From contig MHPK01000006.1 in the NCBI GenBank assembly GCA_001822075.1, positions 58,977 to 122,976 on the forward strand: a stretch of 64,000 nucleotides of DNA. Direction: 5' to 3'. Shown one piece after another: positions 2,333 to 33,462 of the stretch. The notes beneath the pieces were generated by a model that saw only the letters and a program-made list of their open reading frames with translations, made no database searches and was not told the origin of the DNA. Each line of letters opens with the position of its first letter. Position 1 is the first letter of the stretch. A program made the translations under genes and the position numbers. The DNA comes from Candidatus Staskawiczbacteria bacterium RIFOXYB1_FULL_38_37 (lineage in GTDB: Bacteria; Patescibacteriota; Minisyncoccia; Minisyncoccales; Staskawiczbacteraceae).

Positions 2333-2935
2333 TTATGCAAATTTAGTGTAATTTTTGCTGTTAAAATCGTATTTCACAAGCGCGCCGAAAGGAAGCTCAA
2401 GATTAATTATATCATGGTCGGATATATTCTCAATATATTTTACTATCGCCCTTAAACTGTTATGGCTTGCAACCAATAGAACATTTTTGCCGTCTTTTAA
2501 ATCTTTTTCAACATATTTTTTAAAAAAAGGAACTGCCCTATCGCAAACATCTTCTAACGATTCTCCGCCCGGAGGTGCAATATTATAGCTTCTGCGCCAC
2601 AAATGCACTTTTTCTACGCCGTATTTTTTAATTGTTTCGTTTTTGTTCAAACCCGTAAGCTCCCCGTAATTTCTCTCGTCTAAAGCCTTATCAAAAACAA
2701 TGGGCAAGTCCTTTATATTCAAACTTTTTAAAATTAAAAAAACCGTCTCTTTATTTCTTATCAAGGGCGAAGTAAAAATTTTATCAATTTCAAAGCCTTC
2801 CAGGCCTCTTGAAATGTCTTTTGCTGAATCAATGCCTTCTTTGCATAAGGGCACGTCAGTCCAGCCTGTAAACTTATTTTCTAAATTCCACTGAGATTTT
2901 AAGTGCCTCAATAAGAATAGTTTTGACATAGTCAA
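2333..2935 (-). CDS. gpmA: 2,3-bisphosphoglycerate-dependent phosphoglycerate mutase (histidine phosphatase family)
   Basis: LFLLRHLKSQWN (RHG-type catalytic motif variant) followed by FTGWTDVPL, and length, match dPGM. Confidence 0.8.
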   Translation of the reverse strand: MTMSKLFLLRHLKSQWNLENKFTGWTDVPLCKEGIDSAKDISRGLEGFEIDKIFTSPLIRNKETVFLILKSLNIKDLPIVFDKALDERNYGELTGLNKNETIKKYGVEKVHLWRRSYNIAPPGGESLEDVCDRAVPFFKKYVEKDLKDGKNVLLVASHNSLRAIVKYIENISDHDIINLELPFGALVKYDFNSKNYTKFA

Positions 2936-3036
2936 AACAATTTTTAATTTTAAATTCTAAATTTTAAATGAAAAAACTTAATTTTTAATGTTTTAAACAT
3001 TTAGATATTTAGATTTGATTTAAAATTTAAAATTTG

Positions 3037-4287
3037 TTATTTAAAATTTTTATTTATCTCGTCTTCAATGTCCAACAACCTTTTATATTTTACCATTCTT
3101 TCTTCTTTTGCGGGAGAGCCTGATTTTATAAAATCAGCTCCTATGCCGACAGAAAAATCTGCAATAAAATCATCCATTGTTTCTCCGGACCTGTGGCTTA
3201 CAATTGTTTTCCAGCTAAATGATTTTGCAAGGTTTGAGGCTTCCACAGCTTCTGTAACACTGCCTATCTGGTTTGGCTTTATTATTACAGCATTGCAGGC
3301 TTTTTTATTATGCGCCTCTTTTATTTTTTCTGAATTAGTTGTTGTGAGGTCGTCTCCCGCCACAATAAATTCCCCACTCCTATGCGTCGGAGCGTAGGAG
3401 CGCGACAGCTTCATTATTTCTTCAAAACCCTGCCAATCGTTTTCTGCAAACGGGTCTTCTATAGAAATAATACAAAATCTCTCTGCTAAATCCTGATAAA
3501 ATTCTAAAAGTTCTGTCCTTGTCAATTCCTGGCCGTCTAAAGCATATTTGTTATCTTTATAAAATTCGGAAGCAGCGCAATCTAAAGCAATTTTTACCGG
3601 CTCATGGCTTATTGCATTTTGAAGTAAAAATAATGCCTGCTCTGTTTTAGAAATATCAGGCGCAAAACCCCCTTCATCCCCTAACTTTGCCGATTTATAA
3701 TTTTTTTCTACTAACTCTTTTAGGGCATTAAAAATTTTATTGCACAAAATCAGATTTTCTGCAAAAGTTTCTTTTTGCGGAACTGCCATAAATTCTTGAA
3801 TGGCCAATCCATTATCTGCGTGCCTGCCTCCATTTAAAATATTAAACATAGCTTTTGGAATTTTGAATTTGGAATTTGGAATTTTGAATCCAGAAAATTC
3901 TGCAATATGCTGGTATGGCGGAATTTTTTTTGCAGCAGCTCCTGCCCGGCACACAGCCATTGAAACTCCCAAAATTGCATTTGCTCCCAGCTTTGACTTA
4001 TTTTTCGTTCCATCCAACTCATTCATTATATTATCTATTTCTGCCTGATTTTGAGGGTTTAAGTTTTTTAATTTTGGCGCTATTATATTGTTTACGTTTA
4101 AAATGGCTGTTTTGACTCCTTTTCCGTCAGCATCCCGCAATTCCAGCGCCTCATTTTCACCGGTTGAAGCGCCAGAAGGAACTGAAGCTAAAAATACTCC
4201 TTTATCTGTTTCAAGTTCTACCTCAAGGGTAGGATTCCCTCTGGAATCTTTTATTCCTTTTGCGATTATGCTTTTTATCTTGCTCAT
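3037..4287 (-). CDS. eno: enolase
   Basis: MSKIKSIIAKGIKDSRGNPTLEVEL...SGASTGENEALELRD. Full-length enolase signature throughout. Confidence 0.95.
   Translation of the reverse strand: MSKIKSIIAKGIKDSRGNPTLEVELETDKGVFLASVPSGASTGENEALELRDADGKGVKTAILNVNNIIAPKLKNLNPQNQAEIDNIMNELDGTKNKSKLGANAILGVSMAVCRAGAAAKKIPPYQHIAEFSGFKIPNSKFKIPKAMFNILNGGRHADNGLAIQEFMAVPQKETFAENLILCNKIFNALKELVEKNYKSAKLGDEGGFAPDISKTEQALFLLQNAISHEPVKIALDCAASEFYKDNKYALDGQELTRTELLEFYQDLAERFCIISIEDPFAENDWQGFEEIMKLSRSYAPTHRSGEFIVAGDDLTTTNSEKIKEAHNKKACNAVIIKPNQIGSVTEAVEASNLAKSFSWKTIVSHRSGETMDDFIADFSVGIGADFIKSGSPAKEERMVKYKRLLDIEDEINKNFK
3855..3889. repeat. 5 x 7-nt tandem heptad (ttggaat/tttgaat; sense strand ATTC[AC]AA) inside eno, in frame (encodes FKIPNSKFKIPK)
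   Basis: Direct reading of ttggaattttgaatttggaatttggaattttgaat. The same heptad family recurs in gatA and in the rpsM-rpsK spacer. Confidence 0.8.
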
Positions 4288-29910: not shown

Positions 29911-30376
29911 TTTTTAATAATTTAATCTGCGGATTTTTAGCCTCAATAAAACCTTCGATTGTTTTAATAAATGTTTCGGCCAAATCAATAGCTTTTTGCG
30001 CCTCGGTCATAGATATCGTAAGCCCCACTCCATAAATCAAATAGTTCCTATCTTCTCTTGTCTTATCAAATCTTCCCACCAAACTTTTATAATCATTGCC
30101 AAGTATATCCCCCACAAATTGCACTACAATTTTATGAGAGCCCGCCGCGCGCGGACGCAAATTATGTGAAAAAATAAGCGCTCGGCCGGACAAAAGCATG
30201 GCATCATAAGCCAACTGAAAGCTATTGTCGGAGTCTTCATTTTCAATTAAAAGACGGGAACTTTTTAGTTTTTTATAAGCGTTCTCTATGAGTTTTTGAA
30301 CTTTATCAAATCCAATTTCTTCCTTCTTGAGCAAACCCTTATTGACTAATTCTTCGTAATTCATTTTCGTTGCCAA
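29897..30376 (-). CDS. HEPN domain protein (toxin-like partner of the adjacent nucleotidyltransferase)
   Basis: 159 aa with R-x4-6-H motif RPRAAGSHK. Overlaps the upstream NTase gene. Confidence 0.6.
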   Translation of the reverse strand: MATKMNYEELVNKGLLKKEEIGFDKVQKLIENAYKKLKSSRLLIENEDSDNSFQLAYDAMLLSGRALIFSHNLRPRAAGSHKIVVQFVGDILGNDYKSLVGRFDKTREDRNYLIYGVGLTISMTEAQKAIDLAETFIKTIEGFIEAKNPQIKLLKNDHE

Positions 30377-30914
30377 ATATAAAAATTTTTATGTTCTTAA
30401 AAATGCTTAAAATAAAAGAGTCTTTCTCTTTTATTCTTTTCCGCCAATCTTTTTCAGAAAAAATTCGGTAATTTATTTCACGGGAAAGCTTTCTTTCTAA
30501 ATCGCTTATTTTATTAAAAAATTTATCTTCATCGGGTTCGCCAATTATCATTAAATCAATGTCTGATAAAGAGTCTTCCTCTTGTTTCGCAAACGAGCCG
30601 AATATAAAAATGATTTTCACATTCTCAACATTTTCAAATATTTCTTTCAATTTTCCCTCAGCGCCAAGTGTTTTAAAAAAAATACTCTTTACTTCATTAT
30701 ACAGCGGATACTCCTTGTTTATTTTAAAAAAACGGCTATTGGCTTTTTTATCGCTTAAAAGAATTTTATTTTTAACTAGGCTTTCTATGTCTTTCTGAAA
30801 AACACCAGGCTTTTTATTCAAAATCCGGCCAATTTGCCTGAAATAATAATCTTTCTCCGGATCTTTAAAGAAAAGTTCAAGAATCAGTGTTTGATTTTTA
30901 GTAAAGTTTAACAT
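30339..30914 (-). CDS. minimal nucleotidyltransferase (MNT/Pol-beta-like) with C-terminal extension
   Basis: GSFAKQEEDSLSDIDLMIIGE (GS...DxD motif). Confidence 0.7.
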   Translation of the reverse strand: MLNFTKNQTLILELFFKDPEKDYYFRQIGRILNKKPGVFQKDIESLVKNKILLSDKKANSRFFKINKEYPLYNEVKSIFFKTLGAEGKLKEIFENVENVKIIFIFGSFAKQEEDSLSDIDLMIIGEPDEDKFFNKISDLERKLSREINYRIFSEKDWRKRIKEKDSFILSIFKNIKIFIFGNENELRRISQ

Positions 30915-31070: not shown

Positions 31071-32840
31071 CTACGCCACTTCCTTATTGTAGCAATTTTT
31101 ACAATAAACTATTTCAGGACGGTCTGGGGCATAGCTTGTCTCAAACTCATTCTGGCATTTTCCTTTTCCATGGGAATGATTTTCTTTATTGCACATGCAT
31201 TCCCGATGCCAAAGCCTAATAGGCGTACGCTGGGAAAGCCGGGCGAAGTGGCGACAGTTTGGGCACATTTTCGGAATCGGAATGCCCATACGTTTATAAA
31301 AATTCAAATCGCTTGTCGTAATTTTGAAAGCTTGCGTGCATTGGTGATTACATTTTCCATCGTGGGCACACCCGATTATTTCTTTTAAAATCTGATCGCT
31401 TACCTCTTCAATAGAATCTGGAATATTTTCTGCTTTTAAAGTAACAGTATAGCTCTTTACCTCTGGCTCAAGCCACCTATATCCCTGCTTTAGCGCTTCC
31501 TCTTTTGAAATTGGAAAAAGCTCCTGCGCAATGGTTTCGTTGTATGCAAACGCATGCATGTCCAGTGGGAAAGTTGAACCATAGCGATATTCTCTTCCCA
31601 AAGCGTCTTTATAAGGCATTGCATTCATGTGCTCAATAATTTTAGGAATTAGTGCTTCGTATTCTTCTTTTGTATACTGCTTATTCAAAATACAATACTG
31701 TTTTTTGCGCAAACCGACGCAGCCGAATAAATCGGACGAACTCATGCAGTTCACGCAATATTGCGCCCGAACTAACTGGTCCCAGCATTCGTTTGAGAAA
31801 AACACTTGCGAGCATTGCCTGCCAATGCTTGAACATTCATAAATCAATTCTGAATTCTTGCCCCAATATGTATAGTCCATCACATCTTTTGCATCCATGA
31901 TTCCAAAAAGATACTTGCCGTCTTCCACTCTTTCGCAATTAAAACCAACCTGCACATTCTTGCATTCATCAAGCCAGTTACCAGAAATATTTGTACTGTG
32001 ATTTTCAACAACAGCCGGCATTATCTGCTTTTTAACAAATTCCAAAAACCTGCTTTGCATGGCCTCAATCTCGCCACGTTTTTTTGGCCACAATTTTTCA
32101 ATCTGTTTCTTATATTCTTCTTTTGTAAATTGCTCGTTGAAAATGCAATATGATTTATTGCGAAGATTCACACAGCCAAAGCAGTCATTGCAATTCAAAC
32201 AATGAAACAAAAAAGAAGAGCTCACACAACTGCCGCATTCCTGCGAATACATCAAGCGACTGCATCTGTAACAATCAATACACTCAAAACACAATTCAGA
32301 CGAATGGATATTGTAATTATCCATGCTGTCTTTTGAATCCCATACCGAAGTGCCATAAGAACAATTTTCATTATTTGCGGCAGCAAAAATAAGATAGCAA
32401 TCTTTATTGTCGCTTACCCTGTTAGTGTAATCGCTGTTTACATTTATTCCTTGCTGGATAATTCCAAGCCGGGGCACCTTTAAAAACAAATCTTTAAACT
32501 GCTGGAAAAATGGTTTTGAAAAATTATAATCTTTTGCATAAGACTGGGTATCCCATTTGTCTGACCACCAACAAGAATGGCAATAAGCAGTGTAGGGGCT
32601 ATCGGGATGATAAATTAAAATTTTATCTTGACCGCACAAATTGCATTTTCTTTTATAAAGGGCCCTCTCGCCCCTCCATGCCAAACGCTTAATAAGCCGG
32701 CATTCCGGGCACCAGGTTGGCGGGGGGACTTTCATTTTTTCGTAGAACGCAAAATCATCAGGCTCGATGGTAAACTCTTTTTTACAATTCTGGCATGCCC
32801 GCACTGAGCTTGCCGAAGTGTTATTGGTTTCGCTTTGCAT
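31071..32840 (-). CDS. cysteine-rich multi-zinc-ribbon protein, paralog P2
   Basis: 589 aa. CQNCKKEFTIEPDDFAFYEKMKVPPPTWCPECR at the N-terminus and SYAPDRPEIVYCKNCYNKEVA at the C-terminus. Confidence 0.6.
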   Translation of the reverse strand: MQSETNNTSASSVRACQNCKKEFTIEPDDFAFYEKMKVPPPTWCPECRLIKRLAWRGERALYKRKCNLCGQDKILIYHPDSPYTAYCHSCWWSDKWDTQSYAKDYNFSKPFFQQFKDLFLKVPRLGIIQQGINVNSDYTNRVSDNKDCYLIFAAANNENCSYGTSVWDSKDSMDNYNIHSSELCFECIDCYRCSRLMYSQECGSCVSSSFLFHCLNCNDCFGCVNLRNKSYCIFNEQFTKEEYKKQIEKLWPKKRGEIEAMQSRFLEFVKKQIMPAVVENHSTNISGNWLDECKNVQVGFNCERVEDGKYLFGIMDAKDVMDYTYWGKNSELIYECSSIGRQCSQVFFSNECWDQLVRAQYCVNCMSSSDLFGCVGLRKKQYCILNKQYTKEEYEALIPKIIEHMNAMPYKDALGREYRYGSTFPLDMHAFAYNETIAQELFPISKEEALKQGYRWLEPEVKSYTVTLKAENIPDSIEEVSDQILKEIIGCAHDGKCNHQCTQAFKITTSDLNFYKRMGIPIPKMCPNCRHFARLSQRTPIRLWHRECMCNKENHSHGKGKCQNEFETSYAPDRPEIVYCKNCYNKEVA

Positions 32841-32983
32841 AATTTTTTTATTCTTCTATCATAACCGACTAAATTAGTCTGTTATGCATTTTTATTGCTA
32901 CTTACATATGTAAGTAAACGTGTAAATAGCAGATTCTTAGATTAACACTTATCAACCTGAATTTTCCAGCGCAAGCTCAGCTC

Positions 32984-33011
32984 TTGACAAGGCGGTAGAT
33001 GCGAGTATAAT
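32984..33011 (+). promoter_or_regulatory. consensus sigma70 promoter on the + strand (TTGACA-16 nt-TATAAT)
   Basis: cTTGACAaggcggtagatgcgagTATAAT. No + strand ORF follows. Transcript would run to the terminator at 33069-33100. Confidence 0.5.
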
Positions 33012-33017
33012 TAAAAT

Positions 33018-33100
33018 ATAAACGGCTTCGGCCCGACTCTGCCGCAAGGCAGAGGTAAAAAAACAAAAAAATTCAAGGTATCAATTCCTTGAATTTTTTT
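33018..33100 (+). ncRNA. candidate ~85-nt sRNA, antisense to the 3' end of the MazF-like gene
   Basis: Defined only by the upstream consensus promoter and the downstream hairpin + T-run terminator. Contains internal hairpin ctctgccgcaaggcagag. Confidence 0.3.
33069..33100. terminator. bidirectional intrinsic terminator
   Basis: aattcaaggtatcaattccttgaatttttttg with T/A runs on both sides. Confidence 0.6.
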
Positions 33101-33462
33101 GTTAATTTTTCAAAATCATCTGTTTTCATAACGCCTATTTTGTGATCCAAACGCCTAGCATCTATAAGTCTTATCTGAGACAGAATTGCAGCACTCTTAG
33201 CGTTATCCTGAAAAATAAACTGAAAATAAAATTTTGACTCTTTTTCGGTGCGAGTTAATGGGAATGCCAAAAAAATCTCGTTATTAAATTTTTTATAAAT
33301 AATCACTGGCCTCAAAAAATCTGTGCCCCTGCCATCCTGCTCAAAACCAACGTTTACACCCATAGCGCAATACCAAACTTCGCGCTCGTGAAAAAACGGC
33401 CTTGGTTCAATTTTGTTAATCAGTGCTTTTTTATTATGCCATTTTGTGTAATCTTTCATCAT
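33073..33462 (-). CDS. PemK/MazF-family toxin-like protein (no adjacent protein antitoxin)
   Basis: VGFEQDGRGTDFLRPVIIYKK...FLAFPLTRTEK...SQIRLIDARRLDHKIGVMKTDDFEKL matches the MazF/Kid pattern (GxEQxG, RPxlv, PxTs, IRxiDxxRL). Confidence 0.65.
   Translation of the reverse strand: MMKDYTKWHNKKALINKIEPRPFFHEREVWYCAMGVNVGFEQDGRGTDFLRPVIIYKKFNNEIFLAFPLTRTEKESKFYFQFIFQDNAKSAAILSQIRLIDARRLDHKIGVMKTDDFEKLTKKFKELIP

Follow-up and report, generated by a model that had tools for sequence, protein, structure and literature searches.

A predicted small RNA gene converges on a solo MazF-like gene

The DNA analyzed here, called the window, is a 64,000-nucleotide (nt) stretch of Candidatus Staskawiczbacteria bacterium RIFOXYB1_FULL_38_37, a member of the Patescibacteriota (assembly GCA_001822075.1, contig MHPK01000006.1, positions 58,977 to 122,976 of the forward strand). 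Within it, a predicted small RNA (sRNA) gene on the plus strand converges on a minus-strand gene for a PemK/MazF-like endoribonuclease, referred to below as mazF-like. An initial annotation of the sequence had proposed a candidate antisense sRNA over the 3′ end of this toxin-like gene, and every feature that it described was found in place. The locus comprises the following features, numbered by position in the window.

32984-32989, plus strand: −35 hexamer TTGACA, which is also the consensus of 125 distinct family loci at this distance
33006-33011, plus strand: −10 hexamer TATAAT, a 12/12 match together with the −35 hexamer; the family consensus is TGcTATACT, an extended −10
33018-33101, plus strand: predicted sRNA over its full length of about 83 nt, detected at 33017-33101 by covariance model R1 with 98 bits (E 8e-23)
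33018-33023, plus strand: predicted transcription start A33018 and single-stranded leader AUAAAC; the family leader is ACAAAU/C, 80 to 99% conserved
33024-33033, plus strand: hairpin 1, GGC-UUCG-GCC with a cUUCGg tetraloop, nearly invariant in all subtypes
33034-33036, plus strand: 3-nt linker CGA, at least 90% conserved in alignment A2 (see below)
33037-33054, plus strand: hairpin 2, CUCUGCC-GCAA-GGCAGAG, 7 bp with a GNRA loop; CUC/GAG is constant at the stem base, and covariation is seen in the inner pairs
33055-33071, plus strand: G(U/A), GU in the window, and then an A-rich linker; complementary to the U-tract in the terminator of the mazF-like mRNA
33062-33103, both strands: shared bidirectional intrinsic terminator, a 17-bp hairpin with core TTCAAGG/CCTTGAA (33072-33078/33087-33093) and T7 at 33094-33100
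33073-33101, both strands: antisense overlap of the sRNA 3′ end with the last 9 codons and stop of mazF-like, plus about 15 nt of the 3′ untranslated region
33073-33462, minus strand: solo PemK/MazF-like endoribonuclease gene, 129 amino acids (aa); Pfam PF02452 PemK_toxin, E 6.8e-8

The promoter, TTGACA-16-TATAAT at 32984-33011, was the sole perfect sigma-70 match on either strand of the window, where 0.01 would be expected by chance, and its ranking in the initial annotation as the best consensus promoter of the window therefore stands. Across the 125 distinct loci the consensus was TTGACA-N16/17-TGcTATACT, the hexamers matched at 10 or more of 12 positions in 87 loci, and the distance from the end of the −10 element to the first G of hairpin 1 was exactly 12 nt in 103. 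Because the spacing after the −10 element is fixed at 7 nt, transcription is predicted to start at A33018, the A of ACAAA in the family, and a consensus promoter suggests that the sRNA would be highly expressed. The plus strand is otherwise empty, as had been remarked, with 37 of 39 open reading frames (ORFs) of at least 200 aa on the minus strand; GC skew was negative throughout the window, and nearly all coding was on the minus strand. It had also been considered that the promoter sequence might be part of a terminator or UP element of a neighboring gene, but the neighbor changes in nearly every relative while the promoter stays with the RNA.

The predicted transcript from 33018 to 33103 (86 nt) folded at −37.1 kcal/mol, versus −14.4 ± 2.8 for shuffled sequences (z = −8.1), and covariance model R1 found a single copy of the sRNA in the window. 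Hairpins 1 and 2 were absent from the initial account, which had described a hairpin plus T7 overlapping the last codons of the toxin gene; the latter was confirmed as the hairpin at 33062-33103, with the stop codon within its stem. The A-run at 33062-33071 doubles as the lower 5′ arm of the extended terminator stem, and on the minus-strand side of the hairpin T7GT7 comes next.

The RNA is conserved, covaries, and is strand specific

Related loci of uncultivated Patescibacteria numbered about 200, of which 80 came from genomes by way of MazF-like homologs (only 50 to 67% identical to the window protein) and 119 came from metagenomes by way of an RNA core pattern. Many of the loci derive from groundwater of the Hainich wells. 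In 37 of the 80 genome loci, the 34-nt core CGGCTTCGGCCCGACTCTGCCGCAAGGCAGAGGT recurred with at most 8 mismatches on the opposite strand, just past the stop codon. The flanks of the genome loci repeated the full layout of −35 and −10 elements, ACAAA leader, hairpin 1, CGA, hairpin 2, A-rich linker, and terminator.

Alignment A2, made with MAFFT from 35 sequences, gave an RNAalifold consensus of three helices. Bases were paired in 98.2% of its cells, compared to 32 to 59% in slid controls, and both sides changed in 14 of 23 pairs, with 75 doubly changed cells; none of 500 shuffles reached any of these measures. Compensatory changes occurred in 5 of the 7 pairs of hairpin 2 (99.6% of cells paired) and in 8 of the 13 pairs of the terminator. 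Hairpin 1 was almost invariant, so that covariation says little about it; the exceptions were one compensatory U-A pair (L057) and a GUCC/GGAC version (L067). The most conserved part of the RNA was the 5′ leader with the two hairpins (33018-33056), which lies outside the mRNA overlap, and the linker between hairpin 2 and the terminator varied in both length and sequence. Pairwise identity was 86% in the core versus 64% (nucleotide) and 58% (amino acid) in the coding sequence, a biased comparison since the set was picked by core similarity.

The helices also distinguish the strands. In the plus sense the core helices held 12 G-U pairs and one mismatch, while on the opposite strand those 12 were A-C mismatches and no G-U pair was present. 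Likewise, the terminator was 97.1% paired with 37 G-U pairs in the sRNA sense and 89.1% paired with one G-U pair in the mRNA sense. Combined, the G-U asymmetry and the promoter assign the RNA to the plus strand, convergent with mazF-like. The promoter, structure, and terminator are thus conserved, covarying, and strand specific across about 200 loci, which bears out the plus-strand sRNA gene of about 85 nt that had been proposed, at a length of about 83 nt. We conclude that a real, conserved sRNA gene almost certainly lies at this locus.

Rfam 15, which includes the pemK motif RF02913, gave nothing meaningful at E ≤ 10 in the window region and nothing at the RNA of 7 diverse loci, and a search of the window at the gathering threshold returned noise only. 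On sequence grounds, the conserved structured sRNA is a new RNA family with no Rfam match. Other identities for the element were considered and rejected. ARAGORN found no tRNA or transfer-messenger RNA (tmRNA) here, and a dispersed repeat or miniature inverted-repeat transposable element was dismissed, as a search tolerating 3 mismatches still found the core a single time in the window. AAAUGGC ('MASARLC...') in 23 of 35 members hinted that the sRNA might be coding, but the remaining 12 of 35, including the window, had ACG, the compensatory changes of hairpin 2 were nonconservative as protein, and the linker length was no multiple of 3. A micro-ORF on the minus strand (32952-33047, 31 aa, TTG start, 'RQSRAEA') was a mere reverse complement of the core that continued into the nonconserved promoter spacer.

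The partner gene belongs to a large MazF subfamily

A protein identical to the 129-aa product has been annotated in a Candidatus Staskawiczbacteria metagenome-assembled genome. Homologs were abundant in Patescibacteria (57 to 84% identity, mostly 128 to 134 aa), and a profile search of 1.84 billion cluster representatives gave full-length matches to 1,691 clusters (defined at 50% identity) at E ≤ 1e-10. The family is spread across Patescibacteria classes and many lineages. NCBIfam and PADLOC gave no match for the protein, and the nearest solved MazF, EndoA of B. subtilis, was distant (E 0.002). An AlphaFold2 model (pLDDT 78) was compared to known structures with Foldseek, and the first 50 matches were all MazF or PemK, with TM scores of 0.6 to 0.7. 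In the motifs G-x-E...R-P and P-L-T, residues G39, E41, R51, P52, and T70 were invariant or nearly so; G18, E20, R25, and P26, which are important for the activity of MazF-Da, are counterparts of the conserved residues of the family (PMC8634880). Two features set the family apart, a lengthened β1-β2 loop and 27 extra residues at the N terminus (KDFxKWHxKK). We conclude that the protein, as modeled, adopts a MazF fold and that its catalytic residues are conserved.

The gene mreB ends 3 nt before the start of mazF-like, with no antitoxin ORF between them, and therefore there is no room for an antitoxin gene here. Moreover, no small ORF family recurred upstream of mazF-like across 138 to 147 loci. 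The absence of an upstream protein antitoxin gene, remarked upon in the initial annotation, thus extends from this locus to the family.

The sRNA 3′ end, the terminator, and the protein C terminus share the same sequence

The last 45 nt or so of the sRNA are perfectly complementary to the 3′ end of the mRNA, and the register of the overlap was 29 nt in 13 of 14 hand-checked loci and 26 nt in L062. The stop codon of the ORF (TCA on the plus strand, 33073-33075) lies within the terminator stem. Read in the mRNA sense, the terminator is AAA AAA TTC AAG GAA TTG ATA CCT TGA, such that the conserved KKFK codons form the sRNA U-tract and one stem arm, P-stop forms the other arm, and the A-rich linker of the sRNA is the U-tract of the mRNA terminator. 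A protein C terminus (KKFK..LP-stop), a bidirectional terminator, and an sRNA 3′ end are therefore encoded in the same 40 nt.

The stop codon was TGA in 119 of 133 family members, versus 6 of the 39 long ORFs in the window, and third-position information was raised in codons 122 to 125. Fixation of TGA and constraint on the third positions of stem codons reveal selection on the overlap at the RNA level. The core behaved differently from the 3′ end: against the rest of the mRNA (translation start and coding sequence), it gave −29.6 kcal/mol versus −27.0 ± 3.4 for shuffles, that is, no special complementarity. Given this lack of pairing, the core is presumably read by something other than the mRNA.

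The sRNA and mazF-like genes travel together

Linkage was assessed in both directions. In the forward direction, 73 of the 80 genome loci had the RNA, as detected by covariance model R1 (E ≤ 8e-9), across from the 3′ end of the MazF-like gene, and inspection of the other 7 revealed variant RNAs that share hairpin 1 but differ in the GNRA hairpin. Variant second hairpins included CUCCCC-GCAA-GGGG and GAAACACCC-GCAA-GGGUGUUUC. Promoter, core, and terminator were thus found on the opposite strand in all 80. Subtypes whose terminator differs still retain an overlap; the RNA and the gene of L071 are parted by an insertion of about 230 nt and do not overlap. In the reverse direction, the RNA core pattern alone retrieved the 119 metagenome loci, 104 of which had a convergent MazF-like ORF within 150 nt, 7 of which lacked room for the gene, and 8 of which had room but no intact gene. 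Among the gene-less loci, L130, L161, and L194 shared the same internal deletion of the MazF-like gene, which left only the N-terminal KDFWKWH and C-terminal codons while the promoter, core, and terminator of the sRNA were intact. L139 had a truncated gene, L087 and L110 had an unrelated gene of 287 to 309 aa, and L141, L083, and L184 had other neighbors. RNA without the gene therefore occurs, whereas the gene without the RNA was never seen among the loci examined.

Little else was conserved around the pair. Over 185 loci, mreB adjoined in 2, murA in 1, and the gene for a 589-aa protein of the window in 2, and the upstream genes fell into 94 clusters among 147 loci, including those for ATP synthase subunits, PolA, PheS, and EF-G. 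Because neighborhoods are otherwise unrelated, the RNA-gene pair is the only conserved unit. Moreover, a second PemK-like paralog, about 40% identical and with the same N-terminal motif, was found upstream in L006 (2389-2821), L055 (2231-2714), and L030 (2348-2830), in tandem with the main gene. A separate convergent RNA accompanied each paralog; it had a TTGACA promoter and kept the GGC-UUCG-GCC hairpin, but its second hairpin, of GNRA type, differed. We conclude that the sRNA is likely functionally coupled to the MazF-like gene.

RNA variants included an extra CCCC-GNAA-GGGG hairpin in L057 (about 3448-3500, minus strand), L110, and L141 and a duplicated hairpin 2 in L037. The 5′ core of the RNA was partially duplicated in tandem in L172 (1387-1437). 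L062 holds a further copy of the RNA just upstream of the MazF-like gene (2895-2978, minus strand); this orphan has a variant hairpin 2 loop, a different terminator, and no cognate gene, and the same copy was found in L086 (3084-3167). Finally, contigs from metagenomes and metagenome-assembled genomes (MAGs) ended at or within the RNA core in L003, L016, L112, L146, L166, L182, and L198. Such ends were rejected as evidence of RNA ends: the core is conserved enough between co-occurring species to break assembly, as a cross-genome repeat does, and the module may be underrepresented in MAGs for this reason.

A candidate dual-mode antidote and its alternatives

The reading that we tentatively favor is that the locus is a conserved two-gene RNA-MazF module in which the sRNA would serve as a dual-mode antidote or regulator of the nuclease. 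The sRNA would act as an antidote or negative regulator made in excess, and far more RNA than protein is predicted because a consensus promoter faces an operon-terminal gene. One layer of control would reside in the 5′ two-hairpin core, which could serve as a platform for protein binding (the simplest candidates are the MazF-like dimer and the N-terminal extension of the protein) and would neutralize the nuclease in a type III-like manner. Such a platform is suggested because plain antisense leaves the invariant leader, the UUCG loop, the CGA linker, and the CUC/GAG base unexplained, and the only partner covarying in presence with the RNA was the MazF-like protein with its family-specific N-terminal extension. 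The RNA core, as judged from conservation, probably binds protein. A second layer would reside in the 3′ 45 nt or so, which could pair with the mRNA 3′ end in a par- or RatA-like antisense manner, and pairing might either expose the mRNA to RNase III or strip it of its stop codon and its terminator, or protective, hairpin.

A number of observations weigh against an antidote. The RNA was kept, with promoter and core intact, in 8 of about 112 loci (about 7%) in which the gene was absent, truncated, or internally deleted, and thus the role of the RNA may exceed the cis gene. The gene was often the last cistron of housekeeping operons: in 96 of 118 loci the nearest large ORF shared its strand, and in 33 the gap was at most 30 nt. 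Viral contigs gave 0 matches to the module, and PADLOC gave none. Such features seem to fit a core gene of the lineage better than a mobile module for addiction or defense. Two hyperstable tetraloop hairpins and a long terminator also predict a stable RNA, whereas classical antitoxins are labile, and the tandem repeats that define type III antitoxins were absent.

The simplest alternative is a pure type I-like cis-antisense RNA for which only the 3′ overlap matters and the 5′ hairpins merely protect against 5′ exonucleases. This account, which we consider unlikely, is consistent with an overlap register fixed at 29 nt in most members checked and kept even with different terminator subtypes, with the constrained choice of stop codon, and with an architecture equal to that of par RNA I/RNA II, which share a bidirectional terminator (PMC7472228). 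A stabilizing hairpin, however, needs no invariant loop, linker, or leader, and the core was more conserved than the protein, albeit in the core-selected set. Furthermore, the RNA of L071 sits about 230 nt from the stop codon without overlap, the RNA is retained after gene loss, and two perfectly complementary, very stable hairpins would pair slowly. The economical cis-antisense picture of the initial annotation therefore stood as regards perfect overlap with the toxin 3′ end and fell short as a full account, since the most conserved core lies outside the overlap and the RNA outlives the gene. Another account takes the sRNA for a lineage-specific housekeeping or trans-acting RNA with a function of its own, and with no toxin-antidote pair, in which the MazF-like protein would be a processing, turnover, or partner enzyme or would merely share a terminator. 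We regard this account as improbable to a similar degree. In its favor, the RNA is the more conserved partner (on the same biased comparison) and can outlast the gene, and none of the loci examined had the gene alone. The family also ranges widely over Patescibacteria classes, often as the closing gene of housekeeping operons, and a stable RNA is predicted. Near-obligate adjacency despite complete loss of other synteny is difficult to reconcile with it, paralogs with their own RNA variants argue for specific functional coupling, and there was no candidate trans target and no match to a known RNA family.

Less probable still is that the sRNA is an obligate subunit, specificity factor, or guide of a MazF-fold nuclease, the two making up a housekeeping ribonucleoprotein that would be constitutive in Paceibacteria and other Patescibacteria and might serve, for instance, rRNA or mRNA processing in their reduced genomes, with the KDFxKW extension docking the invariant UUCG hairpin. 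Conserved 5′ structure followed by an intrinsic terminator also resembles transcription-terminating riboswitches, and one could imagine a small riboswitch or attenuator in which the 5′ hairpins sense, the terminator is the expression platform, and read-through yields a long antisense RNA over mazF-like and upstream genes. Although any read-through would indeed be antisense to mazF-like, we consider an attenuator very unlikely, as there was no conserved antiterminator pairing, the linker between hairpin 2 and the terminator was variable, the UUCG and GNRA tetraloop hairpins offered no obvious ligand pocket, and no Rfam riboswitch matched. The least credible account dispenses with a plus-strand RNA altogether; it holds that the promoter match is fortuitous and that the hairpins belong to the 3′ untranslated region or terminator of the mazF-like mRNA, on the minus strand. 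The terminator does work on the minus strand, where the hairpins fold as well, but promoter sequence and exact position were conserved in 125 loci, all 12 core and 37 of 38 terminator G-U pairs become A-C mismatches on that strand, and the hairpins lie past the minus-strand U-tract and hence outside that mRNA.

A lead modeled on MazF-Da (PMC8634880) took the leader, as (U)ACAAA, for a MazF cleavage site. TACAAA was not depleted in the window (73 observed versus 63 ± 8.5) and the window copy reads UAUAAA; the lead was set aside and remains speculation.

Other features of the window and related loci

Downstream of mazF-like on the minus strand, the window encodes a 589-aa, very cysteine-rich protein (31071-32840) that has many CxxC pairs and no Pfam match. 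Just upstream of this gene are two near-perfect palindromes, CATAACCGACTAA-T-TTAGTCTGTTATG (32860-32886) and CTTACATATGTAAG (about 32899-32914), which are possible operator sites and are unrelated to the sRNA. A HEPN-domain gene that starts near 30364 (minus strand) overlaps the 3′ end of a nucleotidyltransferase gene (Polbeta/NTP_transf_2; 30339-30914, minus strand). Located some 2 kb from the MazF-like module, the two look like a toxin-antitoxin-like pair of the MNT/HEPN kind. On a Yanofskybacteria contig, a tmRNA gene (L058, 2230-2584, plus strand; 135 bits) lies immediately upstream of a PemK-like paralog.

Comparison with known systems

MazF and PemK are textbook type II toxins, neutralized by protein antitoxins. 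The present protein resembles MazEF and PemIK in fold and in the catalytic motif G-x-E...R-P and T; unlike them, it has no MazE/PemI-type antitoxin gene in about 140 loci, carries the 27-residue N-terminal extension and longer β1-β2 loop, and is distant from the solved MazFs. What is found instead is a large MazF subfamily without a protein partner, bound genetically to a structured sRNA whose conservation exceeds that of the protein, with the above caveat that the comparison is biased. We rate the module as a toxin-RNA pairing with a new RNA family and a toxin class unusual for RNA control. A literature search turned up neither this RNA nor any MazF partnered by an RNA, although absence there is no proof of novelty.

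The pemK RNA motif of Rfam (RF02913) is a structured RNA tied to pemK genes in Firmicutes and located upstream of pemK. The RNA described here differs in being downstream of the gene and on the opposite strand, and it gave no covariance match to that motif. SymE/SymR, a type I system, offers a precedent in which a cis-antisense RNA controls an RNA-cleaving protein toxin rather than a membrane peptide. SymR, however, overlaps the 5′ end and start codon, and SymE has an AbrB fold, not the MazF fold found here.

With type I systems, the module shares an sRNA perfectly complementary to the toxin mRNA 3′ end, but the protein is a soluble 129-aa MazF-fold protein and not a small hydrophobic peptide. 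In B. subtilis, the antitoxin RNAs of txpA/RatA and bsrG/SR4 overlap the 3′ end of the toxin mRNA, as does the RNA here, and act by duplex formation and RNase III. Their toxins are small membrane peptides and their overlaps are longer, at about 75 to 120 nt; no conserved structured domain outside the overlap is known in either. In par (Fst/RNA II) of the Enterococcus plasmid pAD1 and its relatives, convergent promoters drive a toxin mRNA and a small regulatory RNA, and the bidirectional intrinsic terminator common to both gives complementarity (PMC7472228). The present module likewise has a convergent RNA and toxin gene with a shared bidirectional intrinsic terminator. It is unlike par in that its toxin is a 129-aa MazF-fold nuclease and not a hydrophobic peptide of about 33 aa, and it lacks the DRa/DRb repeats for 5′ complementarity, having instead a conserved structured core unrelated to the mRNA.

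In type III systems (ToxIN, CptIN, and TenpIN), a structured RNA in excess directly binds and neutralizes a nuclease of the wider MazF/Kid-like fold class, and a terminator sets the ratio of the two; the antitoxins are tandem 34- to 36-nt repeats, upstream, on the same strand, and processed by the toxin (PMC5086642). The RNA here is single copy, nonrepetitive, and convergent, with its own promoter and with no tandem or direct repeats found, and the protein is PemK/MazF by sequence and fold (Pfam PemK_toxin only) and not ToxN/AbiQ, CptN, or TenpN. The candidate phyla radiation has almost no experimental genetics, and the hypothesis is testable in E. coli and in vitro without cultivating the organisms. 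If the RNA neutralizes or regulates the nuclease, it would be a new RNA family among the few conserved regulatory RNAs known in that radiation, and the module would bridge the logic of type I, II, and III toxin-antitoxin systems.

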